The notes beneath the pieces were generated by a model. It saw nothing but the letters and a program-made list of their open reading frames with translations, did no database searches and was not told where the DNA came from. From Phycisphaerales bacterium (lineage in GTDB: Bacteria; Planctomycetota; Phycisphaerae; Phycisphaerales; UBA1924), in the NCBI GenBank assembly GCA_020849105.1, contig JADLGW010000044.1:13683-77682 (forward strand): 64,000 nucleotides of DNA, read 5' to 3'. Positions within the stretch are counted from its first letter, which is position 1; every line of letters begins with the position of its first letter. The position numbers and the translations under genes are program-made. Below are positions 1,167 to 55,705 of the stretch, in pieces.

Positions 1167-1227
1167 GACCGGAAGATTCTTTGGCCCCGGCGGGCCCCGT
1201 CGCCGCATGAGTGCATGGAGAACCACC

Positions 1228-28686: not shown

Positions 28687-29991
28687 TCACGCCTCAAACC
28701 GGACCATTCCGCCGACGATGGTTGCCACCGCCCGGCCGCGGACTCTGCGGCCCAGGAAGGGCGTGTTGCGGGACATGCCGGCCAGACAGGCGGCGTCCAG
28801 TGTCCACTCCATCTCCGGGTCGATCACGGTCACGTCCCCCGGGCCGCCGACGGTGAGCGAGCCGAGCCCGCGGCGGTCGAGGCCGCACAGGCGGGCCGGC
28901 TCGATGGTCATCAGTTCAATGAGCCGTTCCCAGCCGATCGCGCCCGTGGCGACCAGGGCCTCGGCGTAGAGCGGCAGGGCCGTTTCCAGCCCGATGATGC
29001 CGAAAGGGGCGTCCTCGAAGGGCCGGGCTTTCTCCTGCGGCGCGTGCGGCGCATGGTCGGTGGCGAGCACGGTGATCGTGCCGTCGGCAACGCCGGCGCG
29101 GAGGGCGTCCACGTCCGCCCGCTCGCGCAGCGGGGGGTTCATCTTGGCCGCGGTGTCGTAGTCCTCACACGCTTCGTGTGTGAGCAGGAGGTGGTGGGGT
29201 GACGCCTCGGCGGTCACGGGCCGCCCGGCGGCCCGTGCGCGGCGGACGATATCAACGGAGCCGGCCGAAGAGATGTGCTGGACGTGGTACCGCGAGCCGA
29301 TCCCCGCGTTCAGGCGCACGTCGCGCTCGATGATGATCTCCTCCGCTGCCCGCGGCCAGCCGGTGAGGCCGAGGCGCGCGGCGACCTCCCCGGCGTGCAT
29401 CGACGCGCCGCGGGTCATGGTCGTTTCCTGGCAGTGCTGCATGAATGCCAGCCCGGCATCGCGGCACGCGGCCAGGACGCGGGCCATCACGGCGGCCGAC
29501 GCCACACAGTCGCCGTCGTCGCTGATCCCGACCGCGCCGGCCCGGGCGAGCAGCCCGATCTCCGTCACATCGTCACCCCGGCGGCCCCGCGTTGCCGCGG
29601 CCACTGTGAAGATGCGGCACGCGGAGGTCGCGGCGGCGCGGTGGGCGATGAACCCGACCATCTCGGGCGAGTCCAGGGCCGGGCCGGTGTTGGGCATGCA
29701 GCAGACGGTGGTGAAGCCGCCCGCGGTCGCGGCACGTCCGCCGGTCTCCAGGGTCTCCTTGTGCTCGCCTCCGGGCTCGCGAAGGTGGACGTGGGGGTCG
29801 ATCAGCCCGGGAACGACCAGGCACCCGCTGGCATCGATCACGCGATCGGCCGGGTCTGAGGAGAGCCCCGGGCCGATGTCCCGGATCGCGCCGTTCTCCA
29901 TGGCCACGTCGGCGTCGGTCGGCGGGGCGAAACCGCCACCGACCTGCGGACTCCCGATAACCCGTCCGCCGGCGATGAGGAGCGATGCCAT
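28687..29991 (-). CDS. pyrC: Dihydroorotase
   Basis: Inner ATG at 29991 (MASLLIAGGRVI). PGLIDPHVHLREPGGEHKETLETGGRAATAGGFTTVCCMPNT and the later DHAPH motif. Confidence 0.9.
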   Translation of the reverse strand: MASLLIAGGRVIGSPQVGGGFAPPTDADVAMENGAIRDIGPGLSSDPADRVIDASGCLVVPGLIDPHVHLREPGGEHKETLETGGRAATAGGFTTVCCMPNTGPALDSPEMVGFIAHRAAATSACRIFTVAAATRGRRGDDVTEIGLLARAGAVGISDDGDCVASAAVMARVLAACRDAGLAFMQHCQETTMTRGASMHAGEVAARLGLTGWPRAAEEIIIERDVRLNAGIGSRYHVQHISSAGSVDIVRRARAAGRPVTAEASPHHLLLTHEACEDYDTAAKMNPPLRERADVDALRAGVADGTITVLATDHAPHAPQEKARPFEDAPFGIIGLETALPLYAEALVATGAIGWERLIELMTIEPARLCGLDRRGLGSLTVGGPGDVTVIDPEMEWTLDAACLAGMSRNTPFLGRRVRGRAVATIVGGMVRFEA

Positions 29992-30175
29992 CGGCGTGAG
30001 GATACACGCCCCCTTGCCCACTTTGCCGGATGCAGGGAACCCGCCCCAACTCGGGTGCGAAAGGGCACCCGTTCGCACATTTCCCGGTTCCCCATCCCGG
30101 AATAGGCTGTATTGTGAACGCTCGACGGGCGGAGAGCCCGGCGACGCCCCCCACGTTTGCACGGAAGGAGACTGC

Positions 30176-35728: not shown

Positions 35729-35754
35729 CGGTGACTCCTCCCGGACTGGCCCGT

Positions 35755-36114
35755 TCAGGGCGCCGGCTTGACTTCCATCAGGTACGACACGAGTCTGCGG
35801 ATCCTGCCACGTTCCATCGTGAACACGTCGCAGAACACCAGGTGCAGGTCGCCGCCGCCGCGCTTCCGCGCCCGCACCGTCCCCTCGGCGACGACCACGC
35901 CATCCTCCTCCAGCAGGCGGGTCACGGCGATGTCCGGGTGCCCGACGAACGCCTCGTTCTCGATCTCCCTGTCGAACGCCGCCGTGCCTCGCACGTGGAA
36001 CATGCCGGGAATCAGCCACTCCACGTCGTCGGTGAGGCAGGAGAGCACCATGGCGTGATCACCACGGCGGAAGCCCTCCATGTAGCGCTCGACCACGCCC
36101 TTGTTCGCGGACAT
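35755..36114 (-). CDS. SnoaL/NTF2-like (ketosteroid-isomerase-like) protein
   Basis: ATG at 36114. MSANKGVVERYMEGFRRGDHAMVLSCLTDDVEW. 119 aa. Confidence 0.75.
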   Translation of the reverse strand: MSANKGVVERYMEGFRRGDHAMVLSCLTDDVEWLIPGMFHVRGTAAFDREIENEAFVGHPDIAVTRLLEEDGVVVAEGTVRARKRGGGDLHLVFCDVFTMERGRIRRLVSYLMEVKPAP

Positions 36115-36128
36115 GCGGCCACCGTCTC

Positions 36129-36602
36129 TCATCGCTTGGCCCTGCGCTCCGCGAGTTCCTTGATCATCTTCAGCCCGTGCTCCCAGCCCTCGGGCATCCC
36201 GCCCGCGTGCTCGGCCGGGATCAGCCCCATCGCCCGGTGCACCAGCGACAGTCGCGTGCCCTTGCCCTCCGCGGCCAGCCGGTACTGCACATGGTTCACG
36301 GCGGGGTACGACATCGGCATCGGGCCGGTCAGTTCCAGGAGCACCGGGGCCTTGATGACCTGCACATGCCCCCACAGGTGCCCGAACTTGTGCCCCCCGG
36401 CGTTGCCTCGGTCGCGGTACCAGCGGCCGCCCGGCCAGGGCTCGATGGTCATGGGGAACGGCGTGCCGTCGGGCATTCGGCTTCCAGGCCCAAGTTCCTC
36501 CAGCAGGGCCTCGAACGATGCTTCCGGCGAGGCCGCGATAAACACGTCCTTGCGGATGTCAATCGTGTGGATGGTTTCGCTCTCGGTGGCCGTTGTCATC
36601 AT
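36129..36602 (-). CDS. SRPBCC (AHSA1-like) domain protein
   Basis: 157 aa. TIHTIDIRKDVFIAASPEASFEAL... Classic position directly downstream of an ArsR gene. Confidence 0.75.
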   Translation of the reverse strand: MMTTATESETIHTIDIRKDVFIAASPEASFEALLEELGPGSRMPDGTPFPMTIEPWPGGRWYRDRGNAGGHKFGHLWGHVQVIKAPVLLELTGPMPMSYPAVNHVQYRLAAEGKGTRLSLVHRAMGLIPAEHAGGMPEGWEHGLKMIKELAERRAKR

Positions 36603-36975
36603 GCTCCCCTTTCAATGGGTTGTGCGACTCTCTCGCCGACCTCGACTCCCGCTCGATCCGCTCCGCGCGGGCCCTCACCCGCTCCAGTTGGCTCTCCCAG
36701 AACCGCTCGAAGTGCCGCACCCAGTCGTACACGGACCTCAAACGCCCGCCGTTCACCCGGTACACGCGGCGCCTCCCGCGTCGCTCGACGGTGACCAGCC
36801 CAGCCCGCCGCAGCACGCCCAGACTCTTCGAGACCCGGGGCTGGGGCCACCCGAGTTCCTGGACGAGCCCTGTGACATCCCGCCCCTCGTCACGGGCGAG
36901 CGCGCCCAGCACGCGCCGGCGGCCCGGCTCGGCGATGGCCGTGAAGGCGTCGGATTGGTTGGGAATGCGGGGCAC
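36559..36975 (-). CDS. ArsR/SmtB-family transcriptional regulator
   Basis: FTAIAEPGRRRVLGALARDEGRDVTGLVQELGWPQPRVSKSLGVLRRAGLVTVERRGRRRVYRV is a wHTH with no CxC metal motif. Its 3' end overlaps the next ORF by 44 nt. Confidence 0.85.
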   Translation of the reverse strand: MPRIPNQSDAFTAIAEPGRRRVLGALARDEGRDVTGLVQELGWPQPRVSKSLGVLRRAGLVTVERRGRRRVYRVNGGRLRSVYDWVRHFERFWESQLERVRARAERIERESRSARESHNPLKGEHDDNGHRERNHPHD

Positions 36976-37087
36976 ACTGACAATATATCCTCAATCAGGC
37001 ATATGTCAAGCGGCCGCGGCGCGGCGACCGGGCTTGCCTGACCCCGAAGGGCCGGGGCACGGCGGCGGGCTTCGGTACCATCCCTCG

Positions 37088-43463: not shown

Positions 43464-44690
43464 CTACGGGCACCCCATCGCGAACTTCGTCTGGAAGCAC
43501 GCGAAATCGGCGAGGTTCCTTACCCCATCACCGTTGCAGTCCGCATACGCCTCACCCAGCGCAAACTTCGTCTGGAAACCCCCGAAGTCCGCCAGGTTGA
43601 GCGCCCCGTCGCCATTGCAGTCGGGATAACAGTCGCAGCCATAGGAAGCCCATTGCCCGGTGGACAGGCTGAAGCTGCCCGCAACGACGATCTGATCCTG
43701 GTACGGCGCCATCGCCGAAATCGTTGCATCGACTCCCGGGTCCATTGAATGCCACGCCGCCCCGTCCCAAGCCGCAACCGAACGCGAGGGTGCGCCGCCG
43801 ACCCCGGTGAAGTCGCCGCCGACAACGAGATGGCTGCCACGGACGATGAGCGCCCCCACCATCATGAGACCTTGCACGGCACCCACCGCTTCCCACTGGA
43901 ACCCGTTCCACCTCGCAAACTTATTCACCGGTCCTGAGAATACTCCCCCAGCGTATATGTCCCCCCCAAACTCGCGGACGGCAAGAACAGGGGAAAAATC
44001 GACACCGAAGAGTCCGGTAGCAAAGCCGGACCAGTCGTCGCCATTCCACCGTGCCACGTTGTTTGCCGGAACGCCGTCGGCATCATAGAAGAGTCCTCCC
44101 GCGACCAGCCCTTCTTTGGATGGACATAGGGCATACACGGCGGGATTATTCAGGTAAGCGCCGGTCATGCCCCCTCTAAGTGGGCGCCAACTCTTGCCGT
44201 CCCATCGGGCAATGCATTGCGCCGGGTTGCCGCCGGCACCATTGAATGATCCACCGATTATCAGTTCGCCCTCCCACTCGCAGCACGAATAGACGGCGCC
44301 CCCCTGTACCCCTATGCCGAGGGTGTGCCATTCGTCGCCGTCCCACGCTGCTACGCGACCAGCCGGAATCCCACCGGCAACCGAGAATGCGCCGCCCGCA
44401 ACCAGCTCCCCTTCATACTGCACAAGAGCCCACACCTGGCCGTTCACCCCAGTCCCGAGCGGCGACCACGCGCCGCTCGGGGCTCGGCGCGCCAGGTACT
44501 TGATTTGATTGCCACCGGCGGTCGCGAACTGTCCGCCCAAGACAAGCTCGTTGTTATACTCAGCGCAAGCGTATACATATGCCAAACCACCGCCCACACC
44601 GGCGGAGACTGGGTACACCGTCCACTCAGGAATGCACTGACCCAGTGCGGACGGCACCAGTAACGCCGACACGAAACAGACAGGCCTCAC
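43464..44690 (-). CDS. Secreted beta-propeller-like repeat protein with dockerin-like tail
   Basis: About 7 repeats of ~50 aa of the form (A/V)A(R/W)WDG..W..LG.G..G.V.A....G.L..GG.F..AGG. Signal-like VRPVCFVSALLVPSALGQ if the GTG at 44690 is used, which overlaps the upstream stop as GTGA. Terminal CYPDCNGDG...GCP. ATG 44726 is the alternative start. Confidence 0.8.
   Translation of the reverse strand: MRPVCFVSALLVPSALGQCIPEWTVYPVSAGVGGGLAYVYACAEYNNELVLGGQFATAGGNQIKYLARRAPSGAWSPLGTGVNGQVWALVQYEGELVAGGAFSVAGGIPAGRVAAWDGDEWHTLGIGVQGGAVYSCCEWEGELIIGGSFNGAGGNPAQCIARWDGKSWRPLRGGMTGAYLNNPAVYALCPSKEGLVAGGLFYDADGVPANNVARWNGDDWSGFATGLFGVDFSPVLAVREFGGDIYAGGVFSGPVNKFARWNGFQWEAVGAVQGLMMVGALIVRGSHLVVGGDFTGVGGAPSRSVAAWDGAAWHSMDPGVDATISAMAPYQDQIVVAGSFSLSTGQWASYGCDCYPDCNGDGALNLADFGGFQTKFALGEAYADCNGDGVRNLADFACFQTKFAMGCP
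43467..43631 (-). repeat. Dockerin-like Cys-rich C-terminal module, copy 4
   Basis: CYPDCNGDGALNLADFGGFQTKFALGEAYADCNGDGVRNLADFACFQTKFAMGCP. Confidence 0.9.
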
Positions 44691-44974
44691 CTGCGCCTCC
44701 CGCTCTCGAGATATAGCATGAAGCACATGAAGTCACGGCTCGTGAGCACACCGTCATGGTCGCAGTCGGCACGCGCGTCACCTGACGCGTAGCGGCTACG
44801 GAAGCACGCCAAGTCGGATAGGTCGACCACCCCATCGGTTGGCAGCACCCCGCGCCTCCCGGTCCGTCCAAGGACCATTTCAGGCCGAGATGCTTTAGTC
44901 TGCCCCAGAGTGCCCATCTTGTCAAGGGTGATCTTCTTCGAATTCTGCCAATCCATGATCTTCGCACGCCGCAT
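44687..44974 (-). CDS. Small ORF (95 aa) that is little more than a degenerate dockerin-like module
   Basis: MRRAKIMDWQNSKKITLDKMGTLGQ...PTDGVVDLSDLACFRSRYASGDARADCDHDGVLTSRDFMCFMLYLESGRRR. No signal peptide. About 55% GC. Its stop overlaps the GTG of the next gene. Confidence 0.45.
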   Translation of the reverse strand: MRRAKIMDWQNSKKITLDKMGTLGQTKASRPEMVLGRTGRRGVLPTDGVVDLSDLACFRSRYASGDARADCDHDGVLTSRDFMCFMLYLESGRRR

Positions 44975-45905: not shown

Positions 45906-46622
45906 ATGAACCCGCGGGCCTCTCTGCGCGGTGCTGTCCGCGCGGGCCTTATGTACGGATCGGCCGCGCCAAGGACGGGGCACAAGGCCATGAACGACAC
46001 GACAAGCGCAGAGTCATGGGCGGACAAGCGGGTCTTCACGACGGGGGAAGCCGCCACCATCTGCAAGGTCAGCCAGCAGACCATCATCCGCTGCTTCGAC
46101 AGCGGGCGGCTGACCGGCTTCCGCGTGCCGGGGTCAAAGTTTCGGCGCATCCCGCGCGACGAACTCATCCGCTTCATGAAGTCCAACAGCATCCCCATTG
46201 AAGCCCTGGAGAGCGGGCACAAGCGGGTGCTGGTCGTGGACGACGACCCCCAGATCATCGAACTCTTCACCGACATGCTCGGGCGCGACGGGCGGTTCGA
46301 GGTGAAGACCGCGGGCACCGGCTACGACGCGGGCCTCCAGACCGAGGCCTTCAAGCCCCACCTGATCATCCTCGATTACATGCTCCCGGACATCAACGGC
46401 AACATCGTGTGCAAGCGCCTGCGCGAGCGGCCCGAGAGCAAGGACACCCGTGTCATCTTCGTCAGCGGCGTGGTGAACCAGGAGGAGATCGACCAACTCC
46501 TGTCCGCCGGCGCCGACGACTTCATCAAGAAACCGTTCAACGTTCACAAACTCCTGGCCCGCATCGGCGAGTTGCTCGGCCTGGAGCCCATCGCGAATGG
46601 CAAGGCGGCCCGACCGTCGTAG
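45906..46622 (+). CDS. Response regulator with N-terminal excisionase/MerR-type HTH and C-terminal receiver
   Basis: FTTGEAATICKVSQQTIIRCFDSGRLTGFRVPGSKFRRIPRDEL, then the REC domain (KRVLVVDDDPQ...LIILDYMLPDING...FIKKPF). ATG 45990 (MNDTTSAESW) is at least as likely a start. Confidence 0.85.
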   Translation: MNPRASLRGAVRAGLMYGSAAPRTGHKAMNDTTSAESWADKRVFTTGEAATICKVSQQTIIRCFDSGRLTGFRVPGSKFRRIPRDELIRFMKSNSIPIEALESGHKRVLVVDDDPQIIELFTDMLGRDGRFEVKTAGTGYDAGLQTEAFKPHLIILDYMLPDINGNIVCKRLRERPESKDTRVIFVSGVVNQEEIDQLLSAGADDFIKKPFNVHKLLARIGELLGLEPIANGKAARPS

Positions 46623-46639
46623 GGCAGCGGAGTTGTTTC

Positions 46640-48985
46640 ATGCCGACGACGCAGCAGCAGGGTGGCCGCGCCCGACAGATCGAACTGATCCTGCAGCAGG
46701 TGGACAGCCTGCCCACGCTCTCACCGATCGCGGCGCGCCTGCTCCAGATCACCAGCCCGGTGGACGCGGACCTGGACGAGATCGTGGGGCTGATCGAGGC
46801 CGATCCGGCGATGACCGGGCGCATCCTCGGCCTGTGCCGCCGAGCCGATCGCGGGCTCGGCGACCGGATCACCACCGTTCGCCGGGCCGTCGTCATGCTG
46901 GGCCTGGAGGCCGTGCAATCGGCGGTGCTGAGCGTCGCGGTCTACGACCTGATGGAGCACGCGGCCACCGCCGCGGGGCGGGAACTGGAGGCGCCTCCCG
47001 GACTGGTTGCCGACGCCACGGGCCACCCGTTCGATCGTGTCGGGTTCTGGAAGCACTGCATCGGCGTGGCGGCAGCCAGCGAACTGATCGCCGAGAGCCA
47101 CGGGCGGCTGGGTGTGCCGCCCGAGGAAGCCTTTGTCGCCGGGTTGCTGCACAACCTCGGGAAGATGGCGTTCGACCTCATCCTGCCGCAGGCGTACCAG
47201 CGGGTGCTGGGCCTGGCCGAGCGTCGGCGCTGCGGGAGCGCCGGGATCGAGCGCGAAGTCCTGGGCCTGGACCACCATACCGCGGGGCGGCGCCTGGGTG
47301 AGCACTGGTGCCTGCCGCACGCGCTCCAGGACGTCATGTGGCTGCACGGGCAGCCGGCCGCGACGCTCCCGGACCTGCCGCACAAGCGGCTCATCGGTAT
47401 CGTGAGCGTCGCCAACGTGCTGTGCCGGTCGCTGCACATGGGCTGGTCGGGCGACTTCTCGACGCCGCGCCCCGTCGCGGGTCTCTGCCAGGAATACGGC
47501 ATCGACGCGGTGCTGGTGGACGACATCGTGCCGCGGCTGCACGACGCGCTGGCGGCGCGCTGCAAACTGCTGGGGATCGAGGACAAGACCCCGCCCGAAC
47601 TGCTCATGCAGTCGATCGCGTCGGCCAACCGGCAACTGGCCCGCCTCAACGCGGCGCTGCAGCAGCGCGCCAGGCACAGCGAGCGGCAGGGCAGGGTGCT
47701 CGAAGCCATCACCGCGTTCCACGCTTCCTGGCAGCCCGGCCGGAGCGTCGGCGACGCCGCGGGCGCGATCGTCCAATCCGCCTCCACGCTCCTGGGCCCC
47801 GGCCTGTACGCCGTGCTGTTCCAATCGCGCACGGGGCAGCGCTCCGAGCCGTGGCAACTGTGCCAGTTCGCGCCCGACGGGAACACGATGCGCACGCGGA
47901 TGATCGAGCCCCCCGGCGGGCCCGAGGGGCGGGACGCCCTCGCCGCCCTCGTCGAGCCGACGAAGATGAACCTCTCGGCGCTGTCGCTGCTCCCATGGCT
48001 GGCCGAGTACCTCGGCGAGCCCGGTCGTATCCAGCGCCTCCATGTGCTCCCGCTGCTCTCTACCGGCGGGCTCGGACCCGTCACCGTGCTCCTGCACGAC
48101 CGCGACCTGGCCGACTGGGCGAGCGAGCCTTCGCTGCTCTCGGCCATCATGGGCTCCTGGACGGCCGCGATCACGGCGGCGTCGCAGCACGAGGGGGCGC
48201 GCCGCCTGGGCGAGCGCCTGGCCGACTCCAACCGCAGCCTGGCCGAGGCCCAGCACCGCCTGGCCGAGGCGCAGTCGCTGGCGCGCCTGGGCGAAATGGC
48301 CGCCGGCGCCGCCCACGAGATGAACAACCCGCTGACGGTCATCAGCGGGCGCAGCCAGTTGCTCGCGGACACCGCCTCGAACGAGTCGGACCGCGCCGCC
48401 GCCAAGGCCATTATCGACGCCGCCCACCACCTGACGGACCTGATCACCAGCTTGCGGCTGCTGGCCAGCCCCCCGAAGCCGGTGATGAGCCCGACCCGCC
48501 TCGACGAGATGATTCAACTCGCCGTCACCCGGGCCGAGGACCGCACAAGGCTGCGCGGTCGCATCACGATCGAACTGCCCAAGCCGTCGCCGCTGGTGAT
48601 CCTGGACCGAGAACTTATTGCGCTCGCGGTCTCGGAGGCGATCGCCAACGCCCTGGAATCTTCGCCCGACACGCCGGTCACCATCCGCGTACAGACCGGC
48701 CTGCCCGACGGACGCCTGATGATCTCCGTAGAGGACCGCGGCATCGGCATGTCCGGCAAGACGCTCCAGCACGCCTTCGACCCGTTCTACTCCGACAAGC
48801 CGGCGGGCCGGCAGACCGGATTGGGGCTCACGAGAGCCCGCCGTCTGGTCGATCTGCATCATGGCGAGCTTGCCCTCCGGAGCACGCCCGAGCAGGGGAC
48901 CATCGCGACGTTCATCCTGCCGACGGCCCAGCCGTCGGCAGCGTCGCGGGGGAGAAGCGGGGCATTCGCCGACATGGCCGCGTAG
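46640..48985 (+). CDS. Cytoplasmic HDOD-domain sensor histidine kinase
   Basis: ATG at 46640. HDOD-like N-terminus (LPTLSPIAARLLQI...DLDEIVGLIEADPAMTGRILG). HisKA H-box AAGAAHEMNNPLTV. HATPase motifs DRGIGM and GLGLT. No TM helix. Confidence 0.88.
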   Translation: MPTTQQQGGRARQIELILQQVDSLPTLSPIAARLLQITSPVDADLDEIVGLIEADPAMTGRILGLCRRADRGLGDRITTVRRAVVMLGLEAVQSAVLSVAVYDLMEHAATAAGRELEAPPGLVADATGHPFDRVGFWKHCIGVAAASELIAESHGRLGVPPEEAFVAGLLHNLGKMAFDLILPQAYQRVLGLAERRRCGSAGIEREVLGLDHHTAGRRLGEHWCLPHALQDVMWLHGQPAATLPDLPHKRLIGIVSVANVLCRSLHMGWSGDFSTPRPVAGLCQEYGIDAVLVDDIVPRLHDALAARCKLLGIEDKTPPELLMQSIASANRQLARLNAALQQRARHSERQGRVLEAITAFHASWQPGRSVGDAAGAIVQSASTLLGPGLYAVLFQSRTGQRSEPWQLCQFAPDGNTMRTRMIEPPGGPEGRDALAALVEPTKMNLSALSLLPWLAEYLGEPGRIQRLHVLPLLSTGGLGPVTVLLHDRDLADWASEPSLLSAIMGSWTAAITAASQHEGARRLGERLADSNRSLAEAQHRLAEAQSLARLGEMAAGAAHEMNNPLTVISGRSQLLADTASNESDRAAAKAIIDAAHHLTDLITSLRLLASPPKPVMSPTRLDEMIQLAVTRAEDRTRLRGRITIELPKPSPLVILDRELIALAVSEAIANALESSPDTPVTIRVQTGLPDGRLMISVEDRGIGMSGKTLQHAFDPFYSDKPAGRQTGLGLTRARRLVDLHHGELALRSTPEQGTIATFILPTAQPSAASRGRSGAFADMAA

Positions 48986-49021
48986 GCCAGGGCCTGCGAA
49001 CCGCCCCAAGAGGGAGGTCCG

Positions 49022-50143
49022 ATGGCCCGCACGAACCAGCGAACTCCGCGGACGAAGGTCGAACCGCTACCGGTTGAGTCACCCCGCCCCGTGGCCGCCA
49101 GTGTCCTGGTGGCCGCCCCGAGTCCGCAGCGTGTCGAGGAAGTTGCCTCCGCCCTGCACGGCAGCCGCGTGCTGCGCGCGGGGTCTCCTGACGAGATCCG
49201 GGCCATCCTGCGGGAGACGGCCGTGGACGCCGCGTTCATCGCGTGCGACGCCGGCGACCCCGCGGCCCTGGCCCTGATTGAGCAGACCGTCGGTCGCGCC
49301 GCGGTCGTGGCGCTGGCGCAGCGCCCGACGCTGGAGCACGCGACGGGCCTGATGCGCCTCGGGGCCGCGGACCTTGTCGCGCTCCCCGCCACGCCCCACG
49401 ACCTGCGGGAGCGCCTCGCCGAGGCGCTGGAACGCACGCGGCGATCCCGTCTTCTGGAGGCGCGCGTCGAGCGGCTGCGCCTCGTCTGCCGCCGTCTCAA
49501 TGAAGCCCGTCGCCAGGTCTCCAGCCAGGTCGGCACGCTGTGCAACGACCTGGTCGAGGCCTACCAGGAACTCTCCGACAAGGTGACCCACATGAACGTC
49601 GCCACCGAGTTCAGCAGCCTGATCCGCCACGAACTGGACGTGGAGAGCCTGCTCCGCACGGCCCTGGAGTTCGTGCTCGCCAAGACCGGCCCGACCAACG
49701 CGGCCGTGTACCTCCCCGCGACCAGCGGCGACTACTCGCTGGGCGCGTATGTGAACTTCGACGGTCCCAAGGACTCGGCGGACATCCTGCTGGAGCAGAT
49801 GGCCGGGGTGGTCGCACCGCGCATCGAGCGCGAGAGCGGCGTGTGCTTCCTGAAGCAGGGCAGGGACATGGCGGAGTTTCTCGGCAGCGATGCCCAGTGG
49901 ATCGGGGACGCGGGGGGCGTGGCCTTCCCGTGCCGGCACGAGGGCGAGTGCCTGGCGGTGGTCATCCTGTTCCGCGACCGGCGCACGCCGCTGAGCGAGG
50001 ACCTGCGCCCCGTGTTCCAGACGATCTCGGAACTGTTCGGACGGCAACTGGCGCGGGTTATCCACATCCACCACCGGCACTTGCCGAAGGACCAGTGGGG
50101 CGGCTTCGCCGGGCCGGATGACGACATCGACCTGGCGGCGTAA
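49022..50143 (+). CDS. Receiver-like (apparently degenerate) plus GAF-like domain protein
   Basis: GGGAGG RBS. The REC-like fold (VLVAAPSP...AAFIACDAGDP...VVALAQ...DLVALPATP) lacks the N-terminal DD pair and the conserved Lys. A coiled coil and a GAF-like C-terminal half follow. Confidence 0.7.
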   Translation: MARTNQRTPRTKVEPLPVESPRPVAASVLVAAPSPQRVEEVASALHGSRVLRAGSPDEIRAILRETAVDAAFIACDAGDPAALALIEQTVGRAAVVALAQRPTLEHATGLMRLGAADLVALPATPHDLRERLAEALERTRRSRLLEARVERLRLVCRRLNEARRQVSSQVGTLCNDLVEAYQELSDKVTHMNVATEFSSLIRHELDVESLLRTALEFVLAKTGPTNAAVYLPATSGDYSLGAYVNFDGPKDSADILLEQMAGVVAPRIERESGVCFLKQGRDMAEFLGSDAQWIGDAGGVAFPCRHEGECLAVVILFRDRRTPLSEDLRPVFQTISELFGRQLARVIHIHHRHLPKDQWGGFAGPDDDIDLAA

Positions 50144-51466
50144 CTAGGGACAACCACGCGCGAACTTCGTCAGGAAGCATCCGAAGTCCGAGAGGTTGCG
50201 CACGCCATCGCCGTTGCAGTCGGCGTAGGGCTGGGCGAGGGCGTAGCGGGTCTGGAAGCAGCCGAAGTCCGCAAGGTTGAGCGCGGTGTCGGAGTTGCAG
50301 TCGGGGTAGCAGGACGAGGGCAGCGTGGCCATGTAGATGCCTTCAGCGCCGTTCGTGAACTCGACCCAAAGAGCGATGGACCGGCCGCTGAGCCCCTGCG
50401 GCCCCATGTTGATGTCGAAAGCAAGATTGCCGTCGAGGATGTCGCCCTGGGCCGCGACCTTGGACAGCACGCCGTTCTCCCAGGTGTAAGTGCCGCGGTT
50501 ACCGCCGCCGAAGTGTCCTACGAACGCGATCAGGCCGTCCTCCATCGAAACCCAGCCGAAGCCGTTGAACGTGCCGGAATGGCCTGGGATCGGTGTGTCG
50601 TGGTTCGCGATCTTGATGAGTGTCCCACCGAGGTCGGTGTAGATGCCCTCTTGATCACCGCCCTGTCCGAAGAAGGCCATGGCGCCGTCGTCGTTCAAAC
50701 TCCCCCGGCCAAGATTGGTGAATGTGCCGCCGTTACCGGCCGGGACGACGGTGGCGCGGTCGTACCGGCGGTGCAGGCCGCTGGAGTCGCTGACATAGAT
50801 GCCCTGCTGATTGACGCCGAGCGCGGTGAATGAAACTCGGCCGTTCCGCAGTACGGTGTTGCCGAAATCCGTGAACATGCCCGTGCCGCCGGGAATCAGG
50901 GTGGACCGGTCGGCAATGATCGAGAGCAAGCCGTTCTCCCACGAGTAGACGCCTTTCTGGTTGTCGCCAGATTCAGAGCCAGCGAAAACTACGCGATTGC
51001 TCTCGACAACTGGCGAGTTCGTGATTGCAAATGTGCCACCATTCCCATTCGGCACGAATATGAGAGTAGTGGCGACTGCCATGATTCCCGCGTCGGAACG
51101 CAAGAATACGCCGCCTTCGACGCCGTCGCCCGCTTGAAAACTGGTTGAAGTTCCGTGTATCGAAGGGCGCCAGTTGGCGACAAAGCCAAACCCAGTAAAG
51201 TGTCTTCCGCCCGGCGACAGGGTATTCAGATCCGCGACCACCGTGAGCGGTCCGCCCGATCCGCGATACACACCCTGCATGGTTGACGCCTCGGCCATGA
51301 ACGCAACTACGCCCCGGTCGATCGCGGGCTCTAGGAACTGCTGGAAGGGAGAGATTGCGCCCGGTGCAATAGTGGCCGTGTCCGCAATGCGGCTGACAAT
51401 CACCGGCTGGGCCGCGCCTTGGGACCCCATCAGCAAACCGCACAACGAAATAGTGGCGACTCTCAT
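50144..51466 (-). CDS. Secreted tandem-repeat (NxxGxxAF-type) protein with dockerin-like tail
   Basis: GAGGGAG RBS. Signal peptide MRVATISLCGLLMGSQGAAQP. About 6 repeats of ~55 aa of the form G.F..FG......(N/D)..G..AF......(Q/E)GIY. Terminal CYPDCNSDTALNL...GCP. Lower GC than the flanks. Confidence 0.85.
   Translation of the reverse strand: MRVATISLCGLLMGSQGAAQPVIVSRIADTATIAPGAISPFQQFLEPAIDRGVVAFMAEASTMQGVYRGSGGPLTVVADLNTLSPGGRHFTGFGFVANWRPSIHGTSTSFQAGDGVEGGVFLRSDAGIMAVATTLIFVPNGNGGTFAITNSPVVESNRVVFAGSESGDNQKGVYSWENGLLSIIADRSTLIPGGTGMFTDFGNTVLRNGRVSFTALGVNQQGIYVSDSSGLHRRYDRATVVPAGNGGTFTNLGRGSLNDDGAMAFFGQGGDQEGIYTDLGGTLIKIANHDTPIPGHSGTFNGFGWVSMEDGLIAFVGHFGGGNRGTYTWENGVLSKVAAQGDILDGNLAFDINMGPQGLSGRSIALWVEFTNGAEGIYMATLPSSCYPDCNSDTALNLADFGCFQTRYALAQPYADCNGDGVRNLSDFGCFLTKFARGCP
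50147..50311 (-). repeat. Dockerin-like Cys-rich C-terminal module, copy 5
   Basis: CYPDCNSDTALNLADFGCFQTRYALAQPYADCNGDGVRNLSDFGCFLTKFARGCP. Confidence 0.9.
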
Positions 51467-51476
51467 TCTGTCTCCC

Positions 51477-53537
51477 TCACTCCAAGAAGCTGAGGTCCGT
51501 GAATGCCTCCGCCATGTCTGCGTTGGTAAGTGCAGTAGTCGTGTCGATCATCCCTCCGAACCACCTGAACTCGCACACCTCGCCTGAAGTGCTGACACCG
51601 CCGCTTGGCCCACGAAAACGCAGTTCGGTGAATGGTGCGGACGGAGTAAAGGAAATCCCGGCCGGGACCACCTGAACACGATCGCCACCGACACTCACCC
51701 CGACATACAGCTTGTGGACAGACGAATCGTATCCCACCGCAATCAGGACAGGAGAGTCCGCAGTCCAGGCGATGTGCGGAACATTGTTCACGTCGACGCC
51801 CGCCTCGTGGTTGGTCACAGTCCCGCCGATGGAAACCGCAATCCGGAGAGTCTTTTCCTCACAGTTGGCGATGAGGGCGATCCAGTTGGAACTGTCGGCC
51901 CAAGGGGTGCAGAGCGGCCAGCGGCGATCGCTTTCGAACTGACCGGTACCGCTGTTGAATTGCCCCCGTGCCGCGAAGCGATCCCAGTTTCCGACCGGCA
52001 TCATGCCCACGAGTTTCACGGACCAGTCGGTGGTTGTGCCGAGGCTGAAGTTGTAGATCCGCAGCAGTTCATCCGGCGCATCGATGAGGTGGCTTCCTTG
52101 AGGGGCCAGCGGATAGGGGAGCGCGCCATTGCCGTCGAGCGCCGTATCGATCAGAAGGTAGTAATAGTTCTCGTCGACATCCGTGTCGATGCCGCTGTCC
52201 CTGGCGTACATGCGGAGCGTGAAGCCGCCCGCGACATCGAGGGGGCGGCCGCACTGTGCCCAAAGATTGGGCTCGGAGGAGTCCGGGCAGTACAGAACAC
52301 GGTCGGCGTCCCGGTCCTGGCCGGCGAGGGCCTCGGCCTCCATGTAGCAAGCAACGATGGGGTTCTCGTTGGCCGTTCCGCCCGTCAGTTCGGGCCGCGG
52401 CTGCGTCAGATTGAAGACGGAGCCTGTTGCGTTATTCGTTCCAACCGAGGTGCCCCACCCGTACAGATGATCAAACTGCGCTTCCTGGACCTCACCGGCA
52501 TCGGCAGGAAGCCGCGTGGCAAAGAGCGTCTCCGTCCCCAGGTCCGCCCCCCAGAACATGACGCGTTCCACGGGGCTGAACGCCGCACACACCGGCTGGG
52601 GGCTTGTGGTTGACACCGGGTACGGATCGGGATCGGTGACCGGCGTGCCCACGCCGTGGAAGTTGTCGGTGAGGGTCCAGTTGCCCGGATCGGAATAATC
52701 AAGGTCAATGTCGTCAAGTGACGCATGAATGAAACGAGCCAGGCCCTTGCCGTCTCCCGTCGACATTAGAACCTGAACACCTTGGGAGTCCTCTTCACCG
52801 GTCCACTCGGTTGCGATGGCGGAGTGCACGTGGTAGACCGGACGTGTGTTTGGGGCCCAGATGTCGAACGCCATCACCCATGCCTGGTGCGGGGAAGCGG
52901 GATTACGCTGGACATCCCACGGACCCACACTGTCTCCCTCGATGGTCCGCACGATGTGGAAGTAGTACCCGCGGCCGGAAGCAGCCTCGGGCTCAGAAGG
53001 GCTCGCGGCCTTGTTGATGTAGTCAGAACTGACGATCGCGCACCGCCCGGGCGGGTCTGCGGGGTCGCGTTCGTAGACCGGCGCGGCCCGCACGCACCAG
53101 ACTTGGCCTCGTCTCTTGAAACGCTGCGCGTGCGACGTCGGCGCATCCGAATCGTCCCACAGTAGGGTCCAGGCACTCTGAAGGGGGTCGCTGAGCGCGA
53201 AGCCCCACCCGAGAATCTCGTACTTTGGAGGGTCCGCTGTGTCGTCCGTGCATATCCAGACCGGGCCGCCGGCGACAATCGCCCCATGAAAGACAACGAC
53301 GGAATGCACCTCGAGGGCCTTGTTCCCGATCGTCTGCGGCTTCAGAAGCACGTCCGAGAATTCAGTCAGCCCGACCGCGACGGAGAGCGAATCTGGCTCG
53401 CGTATCTCCATGTTGGTGACCGATGCCTCTCCGCTCCCAAAGGGGGGTGTTCCCGTGATCGTGCCGCCGTGAAATGTCCAAAGCGGACACGGCAACTGAC
53501 TCGGACCGCCTGACGCAAACGCGTCCGCGTACACCAT
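51477..53537 (-). CDS. Large hypothetical protein (~686 aa): no signal peptide and no recognised catalytic motif, with a possible C-terminal LamG/jelly-roll
   Basis: Uninterrupted ORF with coding-like composition. It ends 10 nt before the next gene. ATG at 53537 overlaps the stop of a small upstream ORF (TGATG). TTG 53579 and GTG 53564 are alternative starts. Confidence 0.7.
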   Translation of the reverse strand: MVYADAFASGGPSQLPCPLWTFHGGTITGTPPFGSGEASVTNMEIREPDSLSVAVGLTEFSDVLLKPQTIGNKALEVHSVVVFHGAIVAGGPVWICTDDTADPPKYEILGWGFALSDPLQSAWTLLWDDSDAPTSHAQRFKRRGQVWCVRAAPVYERDPADPPGRCAIVSSDYINKAASPSEPEAASGRGYYFHIVRTIEGDSVGPWDVQRNPASPHQAWVMAFDIWAPNTRPVYHVHSAIATEWTGEEDSQGVQVLMSTGDGKGLARFIHASLDDIDLDYSDPGNWTLTDNFHGVGTPVTDPDPYPVSTTSPQPVCAAFSPVERVMFWGADLGTETLFATRLPADAGEVQEAQFDHLYGWGTSVGTNNATGSVFNLTQPRPELTGGTANENPIVACYMEAEALAGQDRDADRVLYCPDSSEPNLWAQCGRPLDVAGGFTLRMYARDSGIDTDVDENYYYLLIDTALDGNGALPYPLAPQGSHLIDAPDELLRIYNFSLGTTTDWSVKLVGMMPVGNWDRFAARGQFNSGTGQFESDRRWPLCTPWADSSNWIALIANCEEKTLRIAVSIGGTVTNHEAGVDVNNVPHIAWTADSPVLIAVGYDSSVHKLYVGVSVGGDRVQVVPAGISFTPSAPFTELRFRGPSGGVSTSGEVCEFRWFGGMIDTTTALTNADMAEAFTDLSFLE

Positions 53538-53794
53538 CACTTCGGTCGAGCCGTCTTCCGCCACCCCCGAGCAGAACAAAATGTCGCCGGCGCTGAAGAC
53601 GTGTTCGTACTCTTCTGGGATTGCTGCGATGGGGCTTCCCGGTCCCGGCGCGGAAGTCCCGAAGCCACGCCCGCGCCATCGGGATCAACGGTCGCGATCG
53701 CCCGCGTGAAACTCTGGTGTATTGACGTACTCGACAGGATAAATGCATCGGCGCTCGACTTTGTCTCGTCCGACTTGAACGTGTACACCGCCAT
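53537..53794 (-). CDS. Small hypothetical ORF (85 aa)
   Basis: ATG at 53794 lies 6 nt after GGGGA. MAVYTFKSDETKSSADAFILSSTSIHQSFTRAIATV..., then a low-complexity tail. Its stop overlaps the downstream ATG. Weak call. Confidence 0.3.
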   Translation of the reverse strand: MAVYTFKSDETKSSADAFILSSTSIHQSFTRAIATVDPDGAGVASGLPRRDREAPSQQSQKSTNTSSAPATFCSARGWRKTARPK

Positions 53795-53929
53795 GCTTGG
53801 TCCCCTGTGTGGCAGGTTCTCGGAGCGTACCACAGGAATACCGGATTGCCACGTCCGAGGATGCAGCCCGCTACAAGTTTCCGACCGCCAAGTCTCTGCT
53901 GCGGCTCGAAGCCTCGGATACGATCCCCC

Positions 53930-54199
53930 ATGCCCGACGGAGCAGTCGATCCCGGCCTCACCGACACCGTCTACGCCCAACTGCGGGCGGTGGCGCAGAA
54001 CCAGATGAGCGGCGAGCGGGCCGGGCACTCGCTGTCGGCGACGGCCCTGGTGCACGAGGCATACCTGCGTCTTGAAGGAAAGCCCGGCTCGCAAAGGCCG
54101 CCGCGCTCCGTCTACCTGTTCGCGGCCCCCGTCAGTTCATGGGCAGGTTCTTGCGGCGCCAGAGTTCAACGAGACGGTCGAGGGTGGTGGGCTCCATGA
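53930..54199 (+). pseudogene. N-terminal fragment (~52 aa of ~190) of a TIGR02999-type ECF sigma factor
   Basis: MPDGAVDPGLTDTVYAQLRAVAQNQMSGERAGHSLSATALVHEAYLRLEG matches the ...RPGHTLQPTALVNEAYLRL... signature. Similarity ends near 54085, and the frame then runs into the 3' end of the convergent gene. Confidence 0.65.
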
Positions 54200-55613
54200 C
54201 CGCGCCATCGGCCTGGCGGCTGCTGATGAGTTCGCCGGTGGATTTGTAGAGCGAGACACGGGGCTCCTTTTCCTCGGTCATGCGTGTCGTGAGCCTCCAT
54301 GACGATGGGTCGTCGGGCACCTGCTCCAGGACGTCACGCCGAAGGCGGACGTTGCCGAACTCCGACTGATAGACGTAGAAGCCGAAGTCACCGGGCTTGG
54401 CGCCGCGCAGCATGATCTGCGGAAGCAGCATCCCTTCGACCTGCGTCACATAGCCCTGGTCGGGCACGGTCGGCTTCGCCTGCTTGCCGACCTCGGCCGT
54501 GCCGCTGACGCTGACGCTCATGCTCCCGCCGGAGCGGGCCCCGGATTCCAGCCATGTCGCGGGGTCCCTGCGGCCGGGCGTGCGGACGGCCATCTGGATG
54601 GTCCAGGTCTCCTCGCCGCGGTCGGGGGTCATGAAATAGACAGCACGTGAGTCAATCGTCTGTCCTTCCAGCAGCGATCGCCCCTCGATGAGGACCAGGA
54701 AGCCCTGCTGCCGGTCGGATGACTTCCAGTGGGACCGCTGCTTCGTCGGGTCCAGATCACCCCGCTGTCCGACCCAGGCCTTGACGTGCTGGTATCCAAG
54801 TTCGGTGGCGTCCAGGGCGGCCTTGCCCGGGGCCTCGCGGTAGAGCCGGTACCAGGTCTCGGCTCGGGATTCGACGACCCTCCGCAGGTCGGCGGGAGTG
54901 AGCGACGACATGAGCGTGATGCCCGACTCGACCGCCCCGCCGCGGGCCGCGGCGAGCGCATCGGCATCGTCAAAGGTCGCGGCGGCGATGATGGTCTCGT
55001 AGATGGTGCGCGCCCGGGCGAAGTTCGGCTCCGTGGTGATCAGGTCGAAACTGACAAAGCGGCCGGCGCCCGCGGGGAAGACGGTGTAGCCGCGGACCGC
55101 GGGGGGTTCGCCGGGCCCGCGGGGCAGAAGGGTGTAGAACCGTGAGCCGGGGGACTTTGAGCCGGGGATGGAGATGGTGTCGGTCCGCTCCAGGACCTTG
55201 CCCGCGGTCTCGATGCTCTCCGTCGTGATGCCCTGCTTGGGGTCGAACTTCTGCTTGGGAATGCCGACCGAGTCGAGGACCTGCTGCAGGACCTTGTCGG
55301 CAACCTGGACGGTCGAGAGGTTGTGGTCGCGGCTGGCGGGCGTGTCGATGGTCAGGATCCACGAATCCGGGTCGTCTGTTGGGGAGATTCGGGTGACGGA
55401 TCGGTCGCTCGTGCGTTCCGAACTGGCGCGGGTGCCCTCGGGCACATGGACGGTGAGCCCGACACTCTGGATTCGGATCGGCTCCTCACCCATGACGACC
55501 GCGGCCGGGGTGGCGCCGGGCTGGATGGTTGCGGGCCGGGAGTCCTGGCCCCGGACGGGGGCCGCGGCCGCGACCACGAGGGCGAGAAATCGGACGAAGC
55601 ACCGGGTGTCCAT
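54132..55613 (-). CDS. Secreted hypothetical protein (493 aa)
   Basis: ATG at 55613. Signal peptide MDTRCFVRFLALVVAAAAPVRGQ. Coding-like composition with no recognised domain. Confidence 0.7.
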   Translation of the reverse strand: MDTRCFVRFLALVVAAAAPVRGQDSRPATIQPGATPAAVVMGEEPIRIQSVGLTVHVPEGTRASSERTSDRSVTRISPTDDPDSWILTIDTPASRDHNLSTVQVADKVLQQVLDSVGIPKQKFDPKQGITTESIETAGKVLERTDTISIPGSKSPGSRFYTLLPRGPGEPPAVRGYTVFPAGAGRFVSFDLITTEPNFARARTIYETIIAAATFDDADALAAARGGAVESGITLMSSLTPADLRRVVESRAETWYRLYREAPGKAALDATELGYQHVKAWVGQRGDLDPTKQRSHWKSSDRQQGFLVLIEGRSLLEGQTIDSRAVYFMTPDRGEETWTIQMAVRTPGRRDPATWLESGARSGGSMSVSVSGTAEVGKQAKPTVPDQGYVTQVEGMLLPQIMLRGAKPGDFGFYVYQSEFGNVRLRRDVLEQVPDDPSSWRLTTRMTEEKEPRVSLYKSTGELISSRQADGAVMEPTTLDRLVELWRRKNLPMN

Positions 55614-55705
55614 GGCGCGGCCTCCTGAAACCATATATAGCCGTACCATCGACGCGCGGCGGTGGTTTCAATGACCGGGCGCTGGAAACGGGCGGGGTAC
55701 CCCTG

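Follow-up and report, generated by a model that had tools for sequence, protein, structure and literature searches.

A probably degenerate copy of a two-gene Phycisphaerae module, encoding a predicted propeller/LamG-like protein and an anchored repeat protein, in a Phycisphaerales genome

A stretch of 64,000 nucleotides from a Phycisphaerales bacterium (assembly GCA_020849105.1, contig JADLGW010000044.1, positions 13,683 to 77,682 of the forward strand), referred to as the window throughout, carries at 50144-53794 a cassette of tightly packed open reading frames (ORFs) on the minus strand. A preliminary description made from the sequence had presented this cassette as three genes, namely a small ORF, a large gene for a 686-amino-acid (aa) protein and a gene for a dockerin-tailed repeat protein. 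The ORFs of 440, 686 and 85 aa (50144-51466, 51477-53537 and 53537-53794) are present as described. A TGATG overlap joins the 85-aa and 686-aa ORFs, a 10-nt gap with a GGGAG motif precedes the 440-aa gene, and the large ORF has no signal peptide. No intergenic base separates the cassette from the convergent gene for a GAF response regulator, the stop codon of the latter occupying 50141-50143 and the reverse-strand stop codon of the 440-aa gene 50144-50146. The number of genes and the length of the large one have to be revised. The 85-aa ORF carries, in a different frame, the first ~52 codons of the large gene, which encode its conserved N-terminus, so that the cassette consists of two genes (gene 1 and gene 2), and the ATG at 53537 from which 686 aa had been counted is an internal Met, so that this length is a truncated reading. 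The NCBI annotation gives two hypothetical proteins of 695 aa (IT437_08980) and 440 aa (IT437_08975) and does not call the small ORF. Scans of 49.5-55 kb with Rfam and for sigma-70 promoters and intrinsic terminators yielded nothing credible. The coordinates of the features are collected in Table 1.

Table 1. Features of the cassette and its borders (positions of the 64-kb window)
Feature	Position	Strand	Remarks
Gene 2	50144-51466	minus	440 aa; NCBI IT437_08975, hypothetical protein; exported DUF7453/NxxGxxAF 'choice-of-anchor' type; apparently intact
Signal peptide of gene 2	51407-51466	minus	~20 codons, MRVATISLCGLLMGSQGAAQ; read from the sequence, cleavage site inferred
C-terminal GC-type dockerin of gene 2	50147-50311	minus	two ~27-aa half-repeats; NF041540 match
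Spacer between gene 1 and gene 2	51467-51476	minus	10 nt; GGGAG motif overlaps the gene 1 stop codon
Main frame of gene 1, 3' of the frameshift	51477-53641	minus	propeller region, deletion scar and LamG-like domain
686-aa ORF of gene 1	51477-53537	minus	from ATG; 700 aa if from the upstream TTG at 53579
Head of gene 1	53642-53794	minus	first ~51 codons, the homologous part of the '85-aa ORF' (53537-53794); other frame than the rest
Frameshift zone	53621-53645	minus	1 base short relative to the family; best fit C5 to C4 in the run 53632-53635
Out-of-frame tail of the 85-aa ORF	53537-53620	minus	ends ...SQQSQKSTNTSSAPATFCSARGWRKTARPK*; unmatched in all relatives, which align with the other frame of this DNA
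Internal deletion scar in gene 1	52203-52256	minus	LWAQCG-RPLDVAGG-FTLRMY; ~200 residues gone
LamG-like (concanavalin-A-like) jelly roll of gene 1	51480-52220	minus	Foldseek; best-conserved part of the family
Remnant of a gene for an extracytoplasmic function (ECF) sigma factor, planctomycete type	53930-54100	plus	~57 codons; diverges from the module; PF07638 partial
Low-GC block	50144-54131	unstranded	lies between the 3' ends of two genes of normal GC; seen in the composition profile and in the percentile test
GAF response regulator gene	49022-50143	plus	convergent; stop TAA 50141-50143
Gene for a 505-aa exported protein	54132-55649	minus	signal peptide

The relation of the small ORF to the large gene is evident from P0002, a 961-aa protein of a Phycisphaeraceae metagenome-assembled genome (MAG), which together with the query itself is the sole match of the 686-aa protein in a set of 5.8 billion proteins. 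P0002 starts ~85 residues ahead of the start of the 686-aa ORF. Its residues 28-52 (EFSRAIVTIDPDGTRVDPGVPRFDE) align with the 85-aa ORF (SFTRAIATVDPDGAGVASGLPRRDRE), and the residues that follow (VRIAAVPGSYTEV...) align with the part of the large ORF's frame that precedes the ATG at 53537 (SPIAAIPEEYEHV...), the main frame of gene 1 being 38-47% identical to P0002. In tblastn, the 85-aa ORF matches the 5' end of the large genes of four related loci (L001, L002, L006 and L008), where it lies inside one ORF. In an alignment of the window sequence with five relatives (A3), F29, R31, T35, D37, P38, G40, V43, P48, R49 and D51 are invariant, and the repaired N-terminus is collinear with those of the relatives, with invariant residues on either side of the junction. 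Insertion of one base anywhere in 53621-53645 creates a single ORF of 772 codons, and insertion in the C-run at 53632-53635 yields GLPRRDREAPIAAIP, which is collinear with GVPRFDESVRIAAVP of P0002; loss of 1 nt in this short run would split off the first ~52 codons to give the '85-aa ORF'. Over 51454-54233, the frameshift included, the window shows 100% identity to a Logan contig from run SRR11294031, and this independent assembly argues against an assembler artefact. Programmed -1 frameshifting is unlikely, since the 0-frame around the shift (GAC CGG GAA GCC CCA) is devoid of a slippery heptamer of the X XXY YYZ type. No protein identical to the 85-aa sequence was found among 15 billion proteins.

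The large gene and its downstream neighbour form a conserved pair. A scan of genomes with alignment A2 gave seven related loci, all in Phycisphaerae or Phycisphaerales MAGs, and three more came from metagenomes, in which A2 found none and an alignment of the LamG domain found the three. A DUF7453/NxxGxxAF homologue lies directly after the large gene on the same strand in all ten. At the seven loci at which the gap between the genes was delimited, it is a 4-nt ATGA overlap in two (L006 and L008) and 15-24 nt in four, while the start call is uncertain at the remaining one (L002). When loci are compared in pairs, the identities of propeller, LamG domain and partner rise and fall together (r = 0.90), which suggests that the module is inherited as a whole; in the mirror-tree comparison the LamG domain and the propeller each correlate 0.90 with the partner, so that the two are not discriminated. 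The earlier proposal that the large protein and the surface-tagged repeat protein belong together is thus borne out by the pairing at every locus and by the co-divergence of the parts, and a comparison of synteny shows that gene 1 and gene 2 are conserved as a unit whereas the trio with the small ORF is not. The neighbours of the module differ by locus, comprising dUTPase and HtrA, rpsL and rpsG, an AsmA-like gene, a B12-binding protein or integrase islands, and because they change from locus to locus the module is regarded as a self-contained accessory unit. The ECF sigma gene was considered as a conserved neighbour and rejected, as neither the sigma fragment nor the other window neighbours have a tblastn match in the related loci. 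At L004, the module adjoins the ribosomal genes rpsL and rpsG, as the window module is near the S10 operon, which is probably a coincidence. Two genomes carry two copies of the module each. The pair makes up an accessory module of two genes that has so far been found in Phycisphaerae only; the family of the large protein and its obligate pairing are modestly new, the partner families being known and functionally uncharacterised.

The large protein represents a rare, unnamed family built of known folds, which has so far been seen only in Phycisphaerae. Among 1.84 billion cluster representatives, all of them scanned with phmmer, there are 69 relatives, 23 of them at E <= 1e-30, and intact members have ~920-1050 aa. 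It had been called an unknown, and it does not belong to any well-known family by Pfam, NCBIfam, PHROG or PDB sequence searches: neither a Pfam, NCBIfam or PHROG family nor, by phmmer, a PDB entry matches it, profile searches of PDB with the whole family, the propeller only or the LamG domain only gave nothing usable, and the 23 aligned members hit no Pfam family at E <= 1 except for a weak BNR match (E = 0.02) in two of them. The AlphaFold model of P0002 is all-beta according to DSSP, with an N-terminal segment, ~31 strands at 72-539, ~11 strands at 542-720 and a C-terminal jelly roll; the ~31 strands may roughly be read as ~seven four-stranded propeller blades and the region 542-720 as a sandwich. 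Foldseek searches with two models retrieved enzymes consisting of a propeller and a sandwich, namely GH43, GH32 and the endo-arabinanase EndoMA1 (E 7e-9 to 1e-5, the best values with either model; template modelling score (TM) 0.15-0.3), sialidases (V. cholerae sialidase and NanB; E 1e-5 to 1e-3, TM 0.16-0.25) and the seven-bladed propellers DDB1, SF3B3 and LGI1. The C-terminal ~245 residues match LamG/LNS domains of agrin, neurexin, laminin-G and thrombospondin-N (E ~1e-4, probability 1.0) with a target-normalised TM of 0.4-0.5, and galectins reach up to 0.70. The C-terminal jelly roll suspected earlier is thereby supported at the level of fold (LamG/LNS probability 1.0, TM 0.45-0.5), and modelling followed by Foldseek, which the preliminary description had proposed, ended in propeller and LamG folds with no close solved relative. 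No Pfam Laminin_G or LamG sequence model matched the domain.

Most members of the family have one Asp-box (SxDxGxTW), which is degenerate in the window copy (SDPLQSAW), and three Arg residues are invariant. Mapped onto the DSSP strands of P0002, H300-x-H302 and Q374 fall at the inner-strand starts of adjacent blades, D327, R333 and D392 just after second strands, and H357 at the end of an outer strand. Because such strand positions in propellers all open onto one face, the invariant propeller residues, judged from strand positions alone, may constitute a putative ligand or catalytic site. With regard to location, four of the 16 readable N-termini of gene 1 have a signal-peptide-like leader ahead of the conserved segment (read by eye in A1 and A3); the L002 copy is among these four, whereas L001, its paralogue from the same genome, is devoid of a leader. 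Two members, P0038 and P0039, have C-terminal dockerin-like tails of their own, and P0039 has a signal peptide too. An extracytoplasmic role of gene 1 is favoured with modest confidence on these sequence features.

In addition to the frameshift, the window copy of gene 1 has suffered an internal loss. The landmarks R413 and Y475 (window numbering) are 62 residues apart in the window copy and 234-291 residues apart in 23 relatives, and the gap is unique to the window copy among the 24 members having both landmarks. In alignment A1, the window protein runs from LWAQCG through the short RPLDVAGG to FTLRMY. When mapped on the P0002 model, the missing ~200 residues would correspond to the last propeller blade and the entire middle beta-sandwich. 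The AlphaFold model of the 686-aa protein has a predicted local distance difference test score (pLDDT) of 72.7 and a predicted TM (pTM) of 0.69, with residues 430-490 below 50, as compared with a pLDDT of 87.2 and a pTM of 0.91 for the intact P0002. Damage is found elsewhere in the family. L005 (9833-12867) holds the LamG end of gene 1 only, followed by a frameshifted partner and then by a second, intact partner in tandem, and in L017 (599-1796) the LamG domain is preceded directly, in a different frame, by the N-terminal ~100 residues. In P0020 (391 aa), which is short but in frame, the N-terminal segment and the LamG domain are present and the propeller is absent. Altogether, three of the 11 loci including the window are visibly damaged, each of them retaining the LamG end and a partner. 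With its frameshift and the loss of ~200 codons, gene 1 of the window is probably a pseudogene or a crippled remnant, and this copy gives the impression of an accessory island in decay, in which the ECF sigma remnant is found as well.

Gene 2 was correctly recognised in the preliminary description as an NxxGxxAF/dockerin gene, as it passes the cut-offs of all three models concerned: DUF7453 (PF24251; 77.1 bits against a cut-off of 26.2, 1.7e-21, residues 24-345 on profile positions 34-395 of 460), TIGR05002 NxxGxxAF (56.7 bits against 50, with three matched stretches) and, by a small margin, NF041540 GC-type dockerin (30.6 bits against 29, residues 386-439, ending ...GCP). Seven repeats of ~50 aa with the pattern xGxxAF...G(I/V)Y are readable in its translation. 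The dockerin motif CxxDCNxDxxxNxxDFxCF is clear and duplicated, and the DNA encoding it contains an internal direct repeat (50169-50228 / 50250-50309, 80%). The protein is 46-48% identical to the product of the gene after the large gene in L001, which scores 47.7 bits on TIGR05002, slightly under the cut-off of 50; a PDB search with the gene 2 protein gave chance-level matches only. In all partner homologues a hydrophobic leader with AQ at its end precedes (P/T)W(S/T/D/N)F, and a signal peptide is present wherever the start is readable. Their anchors vary: a GC-type dockerin in the window, a dockerin-like tail in L004, and a tail of P(A/G)PG, a hydrophobic stretch and RRRR in L001, L002, L006, L007, L008, L016 and L018, the last type having been called PEP-CTERM-like by eye and not by a model.

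The GC-type dockerin tail is a common repeated element in this genome, as similar dockerin DNA occurs in at least four other window genes and the organism encodes at least five such tails. Among them, the genes at 868-3423, 27139-28383 and 29180-32890 (all on the plus strand) are of normal composition, and a dockerin remnant in L001 matches the dockerin DNA of these genes with 78-82% identity. This remnant, a lone half GC-type dockerin (CYPDCNSNGLLSPADFGCFQTKFALGCP; 2845-2934 of L001, minus strand), stands without a gene body on the strand opposite to the module, ~250 nt upstream of it, and, standing beside a partner with a PEP-CTERM-like tail, it may be a trace of anchor swapping. Four Logan contigs of the window organism from four runs (L012-L015) all end 55-90 nt past the GAF gene, in the dockerin of gene 2; the repeated dockerin sequence appears to break short-read assemblies. 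One of them (L014) confirms the zero-gap junction between the GAF gene and gene 2 in another sample.

The reading favoured here, with a moderate degree of confidence, is that the locus is a degenerate copy of a two-gene Phycisphaerae module in which gene 1 is damaged and gene 2 appears intact. An intact gene 1 product would start from Met with the conserved N-terminal segment, followed by a propeller of ~seven blades with one Asp-box, a beta-sandwich and a C-terminal LamG-like jelly roll. Gene 2, which would be translationally close-coupled to gene 1, would supply a Sec-exported seven-repeat protein tethered at the cell surface, by the GC-type dockerin in this organism and by a PEP-CTERM-like tail in most relatives, and the C-terminal half of the gene 1 product would form a matched pair with this partner. 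It is tentatively suggested that the intact pair acts jointly at the cell surface, where it might recognise or process a glycan or some other surface ligand.

Several observations weigh against this reading. As to the surface role, the TM over the full chain never exceeds 0.38 in Foldseek and no solved structure is a close relative, no catalytic residues of the large protein could be matched to known enzymes, and ~12 of the 16 readable N-termini of gene 1 have no signal peptide, starting directly with a MAxxKFxF-type segment (A1 and A3). As to the damage, the frameshift is located in a 4-base homopolymer of a MAG, and the Logan contig may share reads with it, so that an error at the read level is possible; NCBI annotates gene 1 as an ordinary 695-aa protein; and every family-invariant residue of the retained parts is still present in the window copy. 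Because these residues are retained, either the inactivation is recent or the shortened protein is partly tolerated or used.

The second of these possibilities amounts to a naturally shortened but functional variant, in which the frameshift is a sequencing or assembly error or is bypassed by an internal restart, the gap of ~200 residues is tolerated, and the LamG domain and the partner make up the functional core. This is rather improbable, though not negligibly so. It accords with the conservation of the invariant residues, with the position of the shift in a homopolymer, with a frame that stays open for 700 codons, with the intactness of gene 2 and with the recurrence of short forms keeping the N-terminal segment and/or the LamG domain (P0020 in frame, L005, L017). 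However, the second assembly has the identical sequence, the loss of a blade normally prevents closure of a propeller ring, the confidence of the model is low around the scar, the further frame disruptions in L017 and L005 suggest decay and not design, and long open frames occur by chance in DNA of 62-70% GC.

In a less probable alternative, the gene 1 product works as an enzyme in the cytoplasm or periplasm, for instance as a metal-dependent lyase or hydrolase of the propeller type whose substrates are imported oligosaccharides; its link with the surface protein would be purely functional, the latter capturing the substrate outside the cell and the former degrading it inside. The absence of a signal peptide from most members, the invariant set of H-x-H, His, Gln, Asp and Arg on adjacent blades, and the presence of GH43, GH32 and endo-arabinanase among the top Foldseek matches (E 1e-8 to 1e-5) would all fit such an enzyme. 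On the other hand, the TM is ~0.2, there is no Pfam or PDB sequence link to any family of carbohydrate-active enzymes (CAZymes), signal peptides and dockerin tails occur on some members, and no conserved transporter or sugar-metabolism genes are found nearby.

The cassette differs from the rest of the window in composition. Its GC content is 62.2% as compared with 69.2% in the remaining window, which makes it the lowest 3651-bp stretch (0.4th percentile). The depression of GC pointed out in the preliminary description is therefore real, and its two spot counts of 50% and 65% are exact, while its overall estimate of 55-62% is slightly low. The GC content at third codon positions (GC3) is 0.75-0.77 in the cassette genes and 0.86-0.90 in their neighbours, and the codon adaptation index (CAI), for which the other window genes served as the reference set, is 0.542 for gene 1 and gene 2 alike, the third and fourth lowest of 34 window genes with a median of ~0.73; by all three measures the cassette is an outlier within the window. 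The same offset is found elsewhere: module GC is below that of the flanks in nine of nine loci measured, by 2.0 to 7.0 points (mean 4.0), and correlates with host GC (r = 0.87, nine loci). Low GC is therefore partly a standing trait of the gene family, accentuated in the window copy, and its presence in every locus together with its tracking of host GC points to long residence and not to a recent import into this genome alone. Under relaxed selection, mutation bias tends to drive sequences toward AT. The deficit is largest in the window copy (7 points), next in L004 and the decayed L005 copy, which would fit an AT-biased drift of this kind, and the accentuated low GC of the window copy would then be a consequence of selection having been relaxed in an accessory island that is decaying.

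Low GC is not a general trait of dockerin-tagged genes, an explanation that was considered and rejected, as three others in the window are normal (GC 0.68-0.71, GC3 0.89-0.90) and one other is low. This last one (43464-44726, minus strand) encodes an exported protein of 420 aa in which Kelch-like 'ARWNGxxW' repeats are combined with a double tail of the GC-type dockerin, and forms a second low-GC patch (GC 0.625, GC3 0.69) having the lowest CAI of the window (0.448). The second-lowest CAI (0.530, with a GC3 of 0.76) belongs to an ORF of 436 codons at 35731-37041 (plus strand), which may be spurious or another atypical gene.

The borders of the cassette had been taken as signatures of acquisition or rearrangement. 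The sigma gene on its 5' side is indeed truncated: PF07638 matches with 35.8 bits over profile positions 22-69 of 185 only, and the ORF containing it (53807-54199, plus strand) scores 44.1 bits on TIGR02999 against a cut-off of 126, is short of the full-length sigma-2/sigma-4 arrangement and runs into the 3' end of the gene at 54132-55649, where it is cut off on its 3' side. This latter gene, whose 505-aa product has no Pfam, NCBIfam or PHROG match, is flanked by the sigma remnant on one side and by the S10 ribosomal-protein operon (rpsJ start 55912) on the other. On the other side, synteny with the nearest long relative (L010, GAF protein 71% identical) ends exactly at 50143; L010 keeps the block of TsaD, response regulator, HDOD kinase and GAF regulator, and continues with unrelated genes. 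Marks of mobility are not seen at the window locus: the nearest tRNA gene is more than 16 kb away, no flanking repeat longer than 26 nt was found around the cassette beyond the dockerin halves, and no integrase is present in the cassette block. Nor did the large gene have a tblastn match in 50,697 phage genomes or 72,556 plasmids, or a relative in IMG/VR, by which a phage or plasmid origin was ruled out. Of the claim of acquisition or rearrangement, rearrangement is thus plausible from the end of synteny and the sigma remnant, and is likely to have occurred at the cassette site, whereas low GC is weakened as a sign of acquisition because all nine loci show it and module GC tracks host GC, and marks of mobility are missing. 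In the STL-PLA9 MAG, the module is located in islands that are duplicated and carry integrases. Next to the window cassette, the genes for the HDOD histidine kinase and for the receiver/GAF regulator (46409-50143, plus strand) form a block with TsaD and an HTH (helix-turn-helix) response regulator; this block recurs in L010, L011 and the organism's own L012, and has no relation to the module. GAF homologues are widespread in Phycisphaerae (682 matches at E <= 1e-10).

An intact operon of three genes, for the small, the 686-aa and the dockerin protein, that was recently acquired as a unit by horizontal transfer is accordingly most improbable. Such an operon would account for the tight packing of the three ORFs, for the outlying GC and codon usage, for the end of synteny with the closest long relative at the cassette and for the truncated sigma gene alongside. 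Against it, the 85-aa ORF holds the out-of-frame beginning of the large gene, is not called by NCBI and has no identical protein among 15 billion; the low GC is shared by all nine loci and scales with host GC; and the locus is without a nearby tRNA gene, direct repeat or integrase, as the large gene is without a phage, plasmid or IMG/VR homologue.

The two module copies in the STL-PLA9 MAG (L006 8934-13790 and L008 8934-13811), which are 1.9 Mb apart, form a mosaic. Their identity is ~100% in the part that begins 430 nt upstream and ends at codon ~555 of gene 1, 53-93% in the remainder up to the end of the partner gene, and 96-98% in the flanks. In the divergent part, the synonymous divergence (dS) amounts to up to 0.65-1.2 and the ratio of nonsynonymous to synonymous divergence (dN/dS) to 0.15-0.5, indicative of purifying selection; the two copies are functional alleles that were exchanged, not decaying ones. 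The boundary lies at the junction of propeller and sandwich, the region deleted in the window copy. From this mosaic, one genome pair, a matching of the LamG half with the partner is inferred. The flanking blocks are interrupted by insertions of 4-5 kb, the one specific to L006 holding an Nmad3-domain gene, and two different tyrosine integrases are found 3-6 kb upstream. A polymorphic surface-recognition locus of Phycisphaerae, in which the propeller is constant, the sandwich-LamG part and the partner are exchanged as a matched specificity cassette, and truncations are by-products of recombination at the propeller/sandwich junction, is conceivable on this basis and at present speculative, with the chances well against it.

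Very unlikely is a remnant of a prophage or of a tail-fibre-like element, in which gene 1 would encode a receptor-binding protein with a constant N-terminus and a variable LamG tip and the downstream gene would be exchanged along with the tip. The dominance of LamG-like jelly rolls among the BFVD matches, the missing signal peptides of most gene 1 proteins, the constant-N/variable-C mosaic including the downstream gene in one genome, the tyrosine integrases 3-6 kb upstream of both STL-PLA9 copies, and the low GC and frequent decay are in line with such an origin. Yet the family has no PHROG match and no homologue in the phage genomes, plasmids and IMG/VR searched as above, most loci have housekeeping neighbours (dUTPase, HtrA, rpsL/rpsG, B12-binding protein), and the Sec signal and surface anchors of the downstream protein are unlike the profile of a virion chaperone.

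There are some known systems with which the module can be compared. In common with the definitions of DUF7453, TIGR05002 and NF041540, gene 2 combines a signal peptide with seven repeats and a C-terminal anchor, and its homologues swap the anchor as the label 'choice-of-anchor' implies; the DUF7453 and TIGR05002 definitions name no upstream partner, and the strict pairing with a propeller/LamG protein is a feature of this subgroup only. To our knowledge, no function has been assigned to the DUF7453 'choice-of-anchor' family. Gene 1 shares the order of folds, in which the propeller precedes the sandwich or jelly roll, with CAZymes that combine a propeller with a sandwich or lectin domain, such as GH43 xylosidases, GH32 fructofuranosidases and levanases, EndoMA1 and sialidases with lectin domains. 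It differs from them in having no sequence similarity except for the weak BNR match, ~seven blades instead of five or six, an extra N-terminal segment and a third domain; with no Pfam or PDB sequence match, a TM of ~0.2 and ~seven blades, it is not a member of GH43 or GH32. LamG/LNS domains usually bind glycans or proteins, and the C-terminus of gene 1 matches those of laminin-G, neurexin and agrin at the level of fold only.

The dockerin-tagged exported proteins of Phycisphaerae, of which this organism has at least five, are reminiscent of the cohesin/dockerin 'planctosome', a hypothesis built on peptidases and cohesin scaffolds that was proposed for freshwater Phycisphaerae, in which such proteins would be assembled at the cell surface (Andrei et al., 2019; PMC6461901). 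In contrast to the planctosome, no cohesin, peptidase or scaffold was found in the module, and most partners use PEP-CTERM-like tails instead of dockerins. With polymorphic loci, namely the phage tail-fibre tip and its chaperone, CdiA-CT/CdiI and Rhs-CT/immunity, the STL-PLA9 copies share a constant N-terminal part followed by a divergent C-terminal part and downstream gene. Unlike these, the mosaic is observed in a single genome pair, domains of the toxin, immunity or chaperone kind are absent, the mean dN/dS is below 1, and the downstream protein is an exported, anchored repeat protein.

For annotation, the pair of 'small ORF plus large ORF' should be merged as one frameshifted gene; tight ORF overlaps in high-GC DNA can look like operon structure, of which the 85-aa ORF is an example. 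The window copy is most likely a decaying remnant, so that its own physiological weight is small. The pairing conserved among the related loci offers a concrete route to the function of both the large protein and the DUF7453 group, and, if the surface-recognition reading is true, the pair adds to the poorly understood cell-surface machinery of Phycisphaerae.

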